A stretch of DNA of 64,000 nt from a virus (Duplodnaviria; Caudoviricetes), in the IMG/VR virus record IMGVR_UViG_3300025671_008697; one strand, written 5' to 3'. Below the pieces are notes generated by a model. That model saw nothing but the letters and a program-made list of their open reading frames with translations, ran no database searches and was not told where the DNA came from. Position numbers and translations under genes: made by a program. Below are positions 20,372 through 21,452 of this stretch, in pieces; position 1 is the first letter of the stretch; the number at the start of each line of letters is the position of its first letter.

Positions 20372-21181
20372 GTGATTGACTATTTTCCAGTTACGGTTCC
20401 TTATAGGGTCGGTCCCACCATGGCCGCTAATGAAGGTCCAGCATTTGTTCCTGTAGAGGACATGTCTCACATAACATCCAAGTTAGCAGAATTAGACAAG
20501 TATGGATCCGATCTGTTTGATTGCCGCAGGCCTGACTTGGTTGAAAAAGCCTCCCAAGTTCTCGGATTAAATCCCATAAGTGACATAGTAGAATTTGCAT
20601 TTTTGTTTAAAGAAGATGTTGCTATTATGCACAAAGGCGTGCTGGAAGCAATCTGTTTCTGCTACCCCAGCAGTTGGATACCAAGTGAACGTATTGGACA
20701 AAGCCTGGCAGAGATACACGCTCCTGTTGCAGATGGCGAACTGCTACGACAAATGAGTCAACGTATCGCCGAAGTTATTGCCACCAAAAGTATGCGTAGG
20801 CATGTTTGGACCATAAGCACTACAGGCGAACTCAGTAATCATCCTAAAATGGCAAAGCCCGAAGTTACTGACCAAACTACTATAGAGGACCTCTACTTTA
20901 GAATGGAAACACAGACCACAATGCCTGTGGGCGATGGCGAAACCGCAGTGTTTTTGGTCAGAGTTGATACTTGTCCATTAGGGGAAATTTGGCAAGACCC
21001 TGCTCGGCGCGATTTGATTATTCAAAGTGTTGACACAATGTCCGATAATGTGCTACAATACAAGAACTTGGTTAAGATTAAAGAAGTCTTAAATAAGAGT
21101 ATTGCTGTAAACCCCGCAAGGGAAGAGGCGAAGAGAAAGGTGTTCTGGACGCGGGTTCGACTCCCGCCACCTCCACCATAA
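20372..21181 (+). CDS. DUF3445 / heme-dependent oxidative N-demethylase alpha-subunit-like protein
   Basis: EDVAIM, CFCYPSSW, IHAPV, RHVWTI, FRMETQT, VFLVRV; last about 27 codons overlap the tmRNA acceptor piece. Confidence 0.75.
   Translation: MIDYFPVTVPYRVGPTMAANEGPAFVPVEDMSHITSKLAELDKYGSDLFDCRRPDLVEKASQVLGLNPISDIVEFAFLFKEDVAIMHKGVLEAICFCYPSSWIPSERIGQSLAEIHAPVADGELLRQMSQRIAEVIATKSMRRHVWTISTTGELSNHPKMAKPEVTDQTTIEDLYFRMETQTTMPVGDGETAVFLVRVDTCPLGEIWQDPARRDLIIQSVDTMSDNVLQYKNLVKIKEVLNKSIAVNPAREEAKRKVFWTRVRLPPPPP
21100..21178 (+). ncRNA. ssrA: Two-piece tmRNA, acceptor piece (5' end approximate)
   Basis: GTGTTCTG-GAC-GCGGGTTCGACTCCCGC-CACCTCC-A-CCA: T-arm and CCA end; late promoter TAAATA at 21090-21095. 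Confidence 0.9.
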
Positions 21182-21248
21182 GCACATGGTCTACTGGTGA
21201 ATGAGATAATAATGCTCATAATAAAAGTCCAAACTGTGTGTTTATGAT

Positions 21249-21428
21249 GGGGGTGTACAGGTTTCGACAGGGCACGGAGTAACAGAGTGGACAGCAGGGC
21301 AATGCGAAAGCCCAAGGGTTAGGACTACCTGGCCGAAGAAGCAAAAAACTATAAATGCCAATGATGAGGTATTTGCTCTAGCCGCTTGAGGCTAAGCCGG
21401 GGTTGGTAACCTTGTAACCCAATAACCA
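21249..21428 (+). ncRNA. ssrA: Two-piece tmRNA, coding piece with tag ANDEVFALAA (3' end approximate)
   Basis: 5' GGGGGTG pairs with CACCTCC including G3:U70; GTTTCGAC; CAGGGCAC pairs with GTGTTCTG; tag ORF 21357-21389. Confidence 0.92.
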
Positions 21429-21452
21429 AAAAGGCTCTCCGGAGCCTTTTTT
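21428..21452 (+). terminator. Rho-independent terminator after tmRNA
   Basis: AAAAAGGCTC-TCCG-GAGCCTTTTTT. Confidence 0.85.

Follow-up and report, generated by a model that had tools for sequence, protein, structure and literature searches.

A large phage genome with a circularly permuted tmRNA gene of the betaproteobacterial type

Does a large phage carry its own gene for a two-piece tmRNA and, if so, to which of the known tmRNA types does this gene belong and what could it do? The question is raised by a segment at 21090–21452 of a 64,000-nucleotide stretch of phage DNA (hereafter, the window), which corresponds to G000:C1:26141–90140 (minus strand) of a 167,330 bp IMG/VR virus record. An earlier note on this DNA had interpreted the segment as a phage-encoded, circularly permuted tmRNA gene. 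This core reading, a circularly permuted tmRNA gene borne by a phage, is supported by the analysis described below.

Phage tmRNAs, including permuted ones, are already known from published work. Lists of them go back to 2014 or earlier (Hudson et al., 2014; PMC4131195); the tmRNAs of the mycobacteriophage Bxz1 group and of Bacillus phage G are taken here as one-piece, not being described as two-piece in the passages concerned. Al-Shayeb et al. (2020; PMC7162821) reported tmRNAs in huge phages, some of which also have smpB, and did not state the form of the gene. The Bxz1 group, phage G and the huge phages share with the present case a phage-borne ribosome-rescue RNA in a large genome rich in translation genes. 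Finally, Buchholz et al. (2022; PMC9004378) described a two-piece tmRNA in phage Melnitz and, of 133 unique structures of phage tmRNAs, counted 53 as ARAGORN-permuted forms. The premise of the earlier note, that one-piece tmRNAs predominate in phages, has thereby been overtaken. The gene described here leaves the picture of trans-translation unchanged. It is a well-documented beta-type two-piece tmRNA of large aquatic-type phages, presented together with its relatives, and what is new is the delimitation of a phage clade of such genes and a lead to their host or donor.

Identity and architecture of the gene

ARAGORN predicted one permuted tmRNA (tmRNA*) at 21086–21480 on the plus strand, with the tag ANDEVFALAA*. 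Among the Rfam tmRNA models of clan CL00001, the best score for this gene was obtained with the betaproteobacterial model beta_tmRNA (RF01850), with a full-length match (1–331) of 137.3 bits against a cut-off of 84 (E = 8e-42). The model tmRNA_permuted (RF04321) gave 110.4 bits against a cut-off of 47 (E = 1e-20). The match to a permuted tmRNA is far above chance, and the ARAGORN call together with both Rfam permuted-tmRNA models bears out the assignment of 21090–21452. The fear that standard finders would miss or miscall the gene proved groundless, since ARAGORN and Rfam both call it cleanly. It should be noted that the 137-bit score on RF01850 is well under the scores of bacterial genes (155–331 bits), and that the middle section of P2 is purine-rich and departs in its pairing from the Rfam model.

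The order of elements read from the sequence is permuted: the T-arm, the 3′ strand of the acceptor stem and CCA come first, and the acceptor 5′ strand and tag frame follow downstream. Apart from the late promoter, all elements listed in the earlier note (T-arm, CACCTCC-A-CCA, 70-nt segment, GGGGGTG, G3:U70, tag and terminator) were found, and all of them are located on the plus strand. The acceptor piece, delimited from the Rfam alignment, ARAGORN and the helix table, occupies 21103–21178, its 5′ end being approximate. It begins with the P2a 5′ strand TGCTGT (21103–21108), which is followed by a window-specific insertion of about 22 nt (~21110–21131) visible in the alignment and by the P2b 5′ strand TGTTCTG (21141–21147). 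The remainder of the piece was read directly from the sequence and consists of the T-arm GCGGG/TTCGACT/CCCGC (21151–21167), the acceptor 3′ strand CACCTCC (21168–21174), the discriminator A73 (21175) and an encoded CCA (21176–21178).

Exactly 70 nt (21179–21248) separate the acceptor piece from the coding piece, and two-piece tmRNA biology suggests that this segment is excised. The self-pairing of its ends is real, and the closing stem extends to 12 bp (21179–21190 with 21233–21244) and stacks on the acceptor stem; a TGAT tail (21245–21248) directly precedes G1. No meaningful ORF was found in the 70-nt spacer, the longest frame comprising 16 codons from a GTG start.

The 5′ part of the coding piece (21249–21356) opens with the acceptor 5′ strand GGGGGTG (21249–21255), in which G3 is at position 21251. 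Further downstream are a D-loop-like GGTTTCGA (21260–21267), the P2b 3′ strand CAGGGCA (21268–21274), the P2a 3′ strand ACAGCA (21291–21296) and the PK1 hairpin (21297–21313). PK1 is followed by an extra hairpin, GGTTAGG/ACTA/CCTGGCC (21317–21334), and by an A-rich leader that runs up to the resume codon. The tag frame called by ARAGORN (21357–21389) starts with the resume codon GCC, encodes ANDEVFALAA and ends with TGA; this stop is placed in the loop of helix 5 (TAGCC/GGCTA, 21379–21383 with 21390–21394). The 3′ domain (21390–21452), defined by the Rfam alignment and the terminator scan, contains a 3′ helix/pseudoknot composed of GGGG (21399–21402), TTGGT (21403–21407) paired with ACCAA (21425–21429), and ACCC in the loop, the pseudoknot pairing having been assigned by eye. 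The terminator scan placed an intrinsic terminator here, with a hairpin at 21428–21451 and a T run after it. When the two pieces are brought together, the 7-bp acceptor stem re-forms between 21249–21255 and 21168–21174, with G21251 opposite T21172 as the G3:U70 pair. As judged from the sequence, the alanine identity set (7-bp acceptor stem, G3:U70, A73 and 3′ CCA) is complete.

An additional pairing was observed in the acceptor piece. The P2a 5′ strand (AUUGCUGU, within 21102–21131) can pair locally with AGCAA in relatives and with GGCGA in the window, where the 22-nt insertion sits in the loop of the resulting hairpin. The local pairing changes in step in contig L024 (same position in L004–L025). 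Since the P2a 5′ strand has a local alternative partner, the acceptor piece may hold two alternative folds.

Relatives in phages and bacteria

A pattern scan of IMG/VR revealed 24 contigs, most of them with permuted tmRNAs. Thirteen genes, including that of the window, make up a phage clade, with contigs of up to 172 kb. All 13 encode ACCA and have a spacer of 65–238 nt with an [A/T]AAG start and a TGAT-type tail, mostly TTTnTGAT; ANDE-type tags are present in all but one of them (L023), and the tag ANDEVFALAA is identical in four of the contigs. Most relatives scored 95–166 bits on RF01850, while two (L008 and L016) passed only RF04321. The nearest kin of the window gene is L025: identity between the two is 95% for the initial 145 nt of the coding piece and 87% for the spacer, and about 53% for the 3′ domain. 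A tblastn search with 16 neighbour proteins against the viral loci revealed almost nothing shared beside the tmRNA, and genome-wide only scattered proteins are shared with the relatives (30–89% identity). In a blastn search against 50,697 phage records, the universal T-arm/acceptor segment, which makes up about 15% of the query, was the sole match.

The spacers of several relatives contain additional sequences. An ATG frame of at least 59 codons was found in the spacer of L019:3107–3593, and a hydrophobic frame of at least 27 codons in that of L023:5566–6020. In the 238-nt spacer of L008:1084–1625, two tandem stalk modules flank a T-arm-like hairpin and a GGTGG/CCACC-A minihelix.

Helices were extracted by anchors from the 13 phage-clade genes for a table of compensatory changes. 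Such changes produced three forms of the T-stem. P2a occurs as TGCTGT/ACAGCA, GATTGT/ACAATC and AGTTGT/ACAACT, and in P2b the pairing is maintained across replacements of U-G by C-G and across one double change. The stem of the PK1 hairpin shows strong covariation, with five forms (GGGC/GCCC, CAGT/ACTG, CGGT/ACCG, CGTC/GACG and CGGC/GCCG); visual inspection of the alignment gave a second PK1 stem of no more than about 3 bp in the window (UGC with GCA), for which covariation could not be demonstrated. The closing stem of the spacer varies between 9 and 13 bp and also covaries across the clade. A minimum free energy co-fold of the two predicted pieces recovered the acceptor stem, the T-arm, both hairpins and the terminator. 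It did not recover the P2 helices, so that the evidence for them comes from the covariation and from the CM alignment; the energy gained by dimer formation was no better than that of shuffled sequences.

A lineage of two-piece tmRNAs in betaproteobacteria has reportedly been described before. With this type (RF01850) the phage gene shares its whole layout, namely a P2 strand, T-arm, CCA, spacer hairpin, acceptor 5′ strand, P2, PK1, tag, helix 5, 3′ helix and terminator, as well as the tag family ANDExFAxAA and the sequence UAUAAAUGCC before the resume codon. It differs from the type in the hairpin added after PK1 and the insertion in the acceptor piece, in the unpaired middle of P2, and in being phage-borne. 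Compared with the genes of Rhodocyclaceae, the phage gene has a lower score (137 bits vs. 160–331 bits), encodes the full CCA instead of ACC and has a longer spacer (70 nt vs. 25–49 nt).

The bacterial genes of the beta type are limited to part of one order, and 4 of 151 sampled genomes of this order passed the cut-off. In the Dechloromonas family 44 of 121 genomes passed, with 160–331 bits. A second family contributed six of 81 genomes, with 155–169 bits, and all six are small (1.6–3.0 Mb). A scan with the tag pattern matched almost only Dechloromonas and Azonexus. In genome G068 the beta-type gene is the sole tmRNA.

Phylogenetic comparison with bacterial ssrA genes, which the earlier note had proposed, grouped the phage clade with tmRNAs of small-genome betaproteobacteria. 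In ML trees the phage genes form one clade (support 100/99), and in the unrooted ML tree a 99/98 branch splits this clade and the six small-genome bacterial genes from the Rhodocyclaceae-type genes. As the tree is unrooted, it leaves the direction of transfer unset. In the small-genome group, too, the CCA is encoded in full and the spacer has a TGAT-like tail, and the mean GC content of its ssrA loci is 41%, close to the 40% of the phage and well below the 62% of the Rhodocyclaceae type. The idea in the earlier note that the gene could reveal its host lineage thus holds up as a lead: on the grounds of tree grouping, encoded CCA, spacer tail and a GC content of about 40%, the small-genome betaproteobacterial lineage is a better candidate donor or host than the Dechloromonas type. 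Recent capture from Dechloromonas or Azonexus as the nearest source was rejected, since the phage clade stands apart from these genera both in the tree and by its features, and the loci of these bacteria have a GC content of about 62%. An independent permutation, also envisaged in the earlier note, is ruled out as well: the gene passes the beta model and clusters in the tree with bacterial beta-type genes.

Some contigs from the same scan carry tmRNAs of other kinds. Contigs L003 and L021 (IMG/VR, 22 and 18.5 kb) contain a tmRNA of 326 nt with a 25-nt spacer and ACC only, which nests in the Rhodocyclaceae-type clade and in L003 scores 299 bits on RF01850; these two are probably prophage-host junctions rather than phage genes. 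The permuted tmRNA of L002 scores as cyanobacterial type (RF01851, 128 bits), has an ANNIV... tag and adjoins tRNA genes, and L020 has a similar ANNIV... tag.

Predicted function and alternative explanations

Judging from its sequence features, we consider it highly probable that the locus represents a jumbo-phage copy of ssrA that is functional and belongs to the two-piece type of betaproteobacteria. The virus record, which is about 45% complete according to CheckV, contains 16 tRNA genes, and nearly all of its large ORFs are on one strand. It encodes a DNA polymerase, an ATP-dependent ligase, a DNA methyltransferase, a ribonucleotide reductase and an endolysin, as well as proteins with tail-fibre or virion domains and many unknowns.

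A functional precedent is provided by the tmRNA of Caulobacter, an alphaproteobacterial-type RNA encoded in a bacterial chromosome, whose two-piece nature has reportedly been shown experimentally. There the permuted gene gives one precursor, which is cut into an acceptor and a coding piece that pair with each other and take part in tagging. The phage gene, by contrast, is of the beta type and is known here from its sequence.

Processing of two-piece tmRNAs has been reviewed (PMC11915505), and this review and the Melnitz study (PMC9004378) served as models for the steps that we propose. A precursor of about 390 nt would be synthesised, probably by the host RNA polymerase from the promoter candidate at 21030–21059, which gives its inferred start, and would end at the terminator (21451). 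By analogy, host RNase P would cut 5′ of G21249 and 3′ maturation would proceed to the CCA at 21178, with release of the 70-nt spacer hairpin. The acceptor and coding pieces could then be held together by the 7-bp acceptor stem, P2b and P2a. Host AlaRS would be expected to charge the RNA via G3:U70 and A73, and with host SmpB and EF-Tu the charged RNA would enter ribosomes stalled on broken mRNAs. Translation would resume at GCC (21357), add ANDEVFALAA and thereby mark the product for ClpXP-type proteolysis. The benefit to the phage may be that ribosomes are kept available during infection, alongside the 16 tRNAs.

The earlier note had also pointed to smpB, and no match to SmpB (PF01668) at E ≤ 1 was found in the 167-kb record, that is, in about 45% of the genome. 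Since the record holds no SmpB, the tmRNA would have to use that of the host. This is no argument against the identity of the tmRNA, because the record is incomplete and phages can use host SmpB. The Methylophilales phage Melnitz and the pelagimyophages (PMC9004378) are similar in this respect, no phage smpB being reported there, and also in that the permuted ssrA gene has a promoter and a terminator to itself and belongs to a large aquatic phage of the lytic type with tRNAs. However, the Melnitz gene is of the alphaproteobacterial type and is reportedly placed under a glutamine riboswitch (PMC9004378), in contrast to the beta-type gene of the window. No riboswitch family match was revealed in the window by Rfam.

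The RNA might alternatively act not in tagging but as a decoy or regulator, which titrates host SmpB, AlaRS or ribosomes or senses the load of stalled ribosomes. The fast evolution of the 3′ domain (about 53% identity to the nearest kin) and the departure of the P2 middle section from the bacterial model are in line with such a role. A precedent exists in mycobacteriophage DS6A, whose TLD-only RNA has been proposed to act by titration, and evidence that a DS6A-like molecule inhibits tmRNA is cited in the same source (Hudson et al., 2014; PMC4131195). Against such a role stands the tag. Its frame is intact, with a proper resume codon, the canonical ALAA end and the stop in the loop of helix 5. 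In the phage clade 240 synonymous vs. 84 non-synonymous pairwise codon differences were counted in the tag (the pairs are not phylogenetically independent), and the amino acids at positions 1–4, 9 and 10 never vary, although two to three codons are used for each. Conservation of the peptide through many synonymous changes is hard to explain unless it is translated, and we regard a decoy function as unlikely.

Bacterial ssrA is a common integration site, and the gene could be the host's own ssrA, picked up at the end of a prophage or fused with phage DNA through mis-assembly. Contigs L003 and L021, with their fully bacterial-looking tmRNA (25-nt spacer, ACC only, Rhodocyclaceae-type clade), demonstrate that such an artefact exists in the IMG/VR collection. 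The window gene, however, is located about 69 kb into the 167-kb record, with same-strand phage genes on either side, and is therefore phage-borne; this position, the phage flanks and a GC content that stays flat at about 40% around the gene and across the locus place it deep in a large phage genome and not at a prophage-host junction. Furthermore, the gene is complete and does not resemble a split att fragment, it belongs to a separate phage clade and scores 137 bits, compared with about 300 for Dechloromonas-type ssrA, and no integrase was noticed beside it. Origin from a host ssrA gene in either of these ways is scarcely plausible.

The permuted gene could, finally, produce a single unprocessed molecule instead of a two-piece RNA, the 70-nt hairpin remaining as a loop that closes the acceptor stem; the stacking of the 12-bp spacer stem on the acceptor stem (−34.4 kcal/mol for the precursor segment) and the 87% identity of the spacer interior to that of the nearest kin would fit this. 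It is barely plausible, given that the encoded ACCA and, ahead of G1, a leader-like TGAT have the layout of a tRNA precursor, that the spacers of relatives vary in length (65–238 nt) and can contain ORFs, as fits a discarded segment, and that an uncut RNA could not be charged because aminoacylation needs a free 3′ CCA.

Expression signals and neighbouring sequences

The earlier note had assumed a late promoter at about 21090. This assignment was rejected, as T4-late-like motifs occur at chance level in the 64-kb window: TATAAATA occurs six times vs. 4.9 expected, and the local TCTTAAATAA box, with one mismatch allowed, ten times vs. 10.7 expected. The strong candidate is instead of the sigma-70 type and is located at 21030–21059 (+), with TTGACA, an 18-nt spacer and a TG-extended TACAAT (11 of 12 consensus matches). 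It is the best and the sole strong candidate, and we predict from its sequence that it functions as the promoter of the tmRNA gene.

This sigma-70-like promoter is not conserved in the relatives. Bacteria and several phage relatives have a −10-like box that stops a few bases short of the first P2 strand; the equivalent position in the window (TAAATA, 21090–21095) is a poor −10 match. A different arrangement was observed in L025, L009, L006 and L013, which have in common a conserved leader, some 100 nt ahead of the tmRNA, that contains the inverted repeat TTGGATC...GATCCAA. In these nearest relatives the leader replaces a recognisable sigma-70 promoter, and the window is without it.

The promoter candidate falls within the 3′ end of an upstream ORF (20372–21181, +; 269 codons), which is a real gene: its product is similar to HODM_asu (PF11927, E = 1e-27), with the domain ending at residue 240 (approximately nucleotide 21091). 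The ORF remains open until a TAA directly 3′ of the tmRNA CCA. As there is no earlier stop, its last 29 codons correspond to the acceptor piece in frame and end with RLPPPPP. Among the relatives the same frame is open for only 18–46 codons; since no other phage of the set has the overlap, it is in all likelihood incidental. One could imagine that CCA maturation of read-through transcripts removes the stop codon of the HODM-like ORF and thus generates a non-stop mRNA ending in a proline run, in which case the tmRNA gene itself would set up tagging and degradation of the product of its upstream neighbour; we regard this as very unlikely.

Directly 3′ of the tmRNA terminator there is a small ORF at 21491–21715 (+) with a DUF6356 domain (PF19883, E = 2e-13). 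It is preceded by a perfect TATAAATA at 21457–21464.

Of the tRNA genes of the record, one, a lone tRNA-Arg(TCT) at 30429–30503 (+), is far from the main cluster of 15. Two spacers of the tRNA cluster, Tyr-to-Asp (71 nt; G000:C1:157258–157328) and Thr-to-Leu (102 nt; G000:C1:159025–159126), both outside the window, contain long hairpins right after the CCA. Their stems, AAGCA(C/T)A...T(G/A)TGCTT, closely resemble the intervening hairpin of the tmRNA gene and also the AAGCGCA...TGCGTTT hairpin of the bacterial beta-type genes. The similar inter-tRNA and tmRNA hairpins may represent a shared precursor-processing module or a mobile spacer module.
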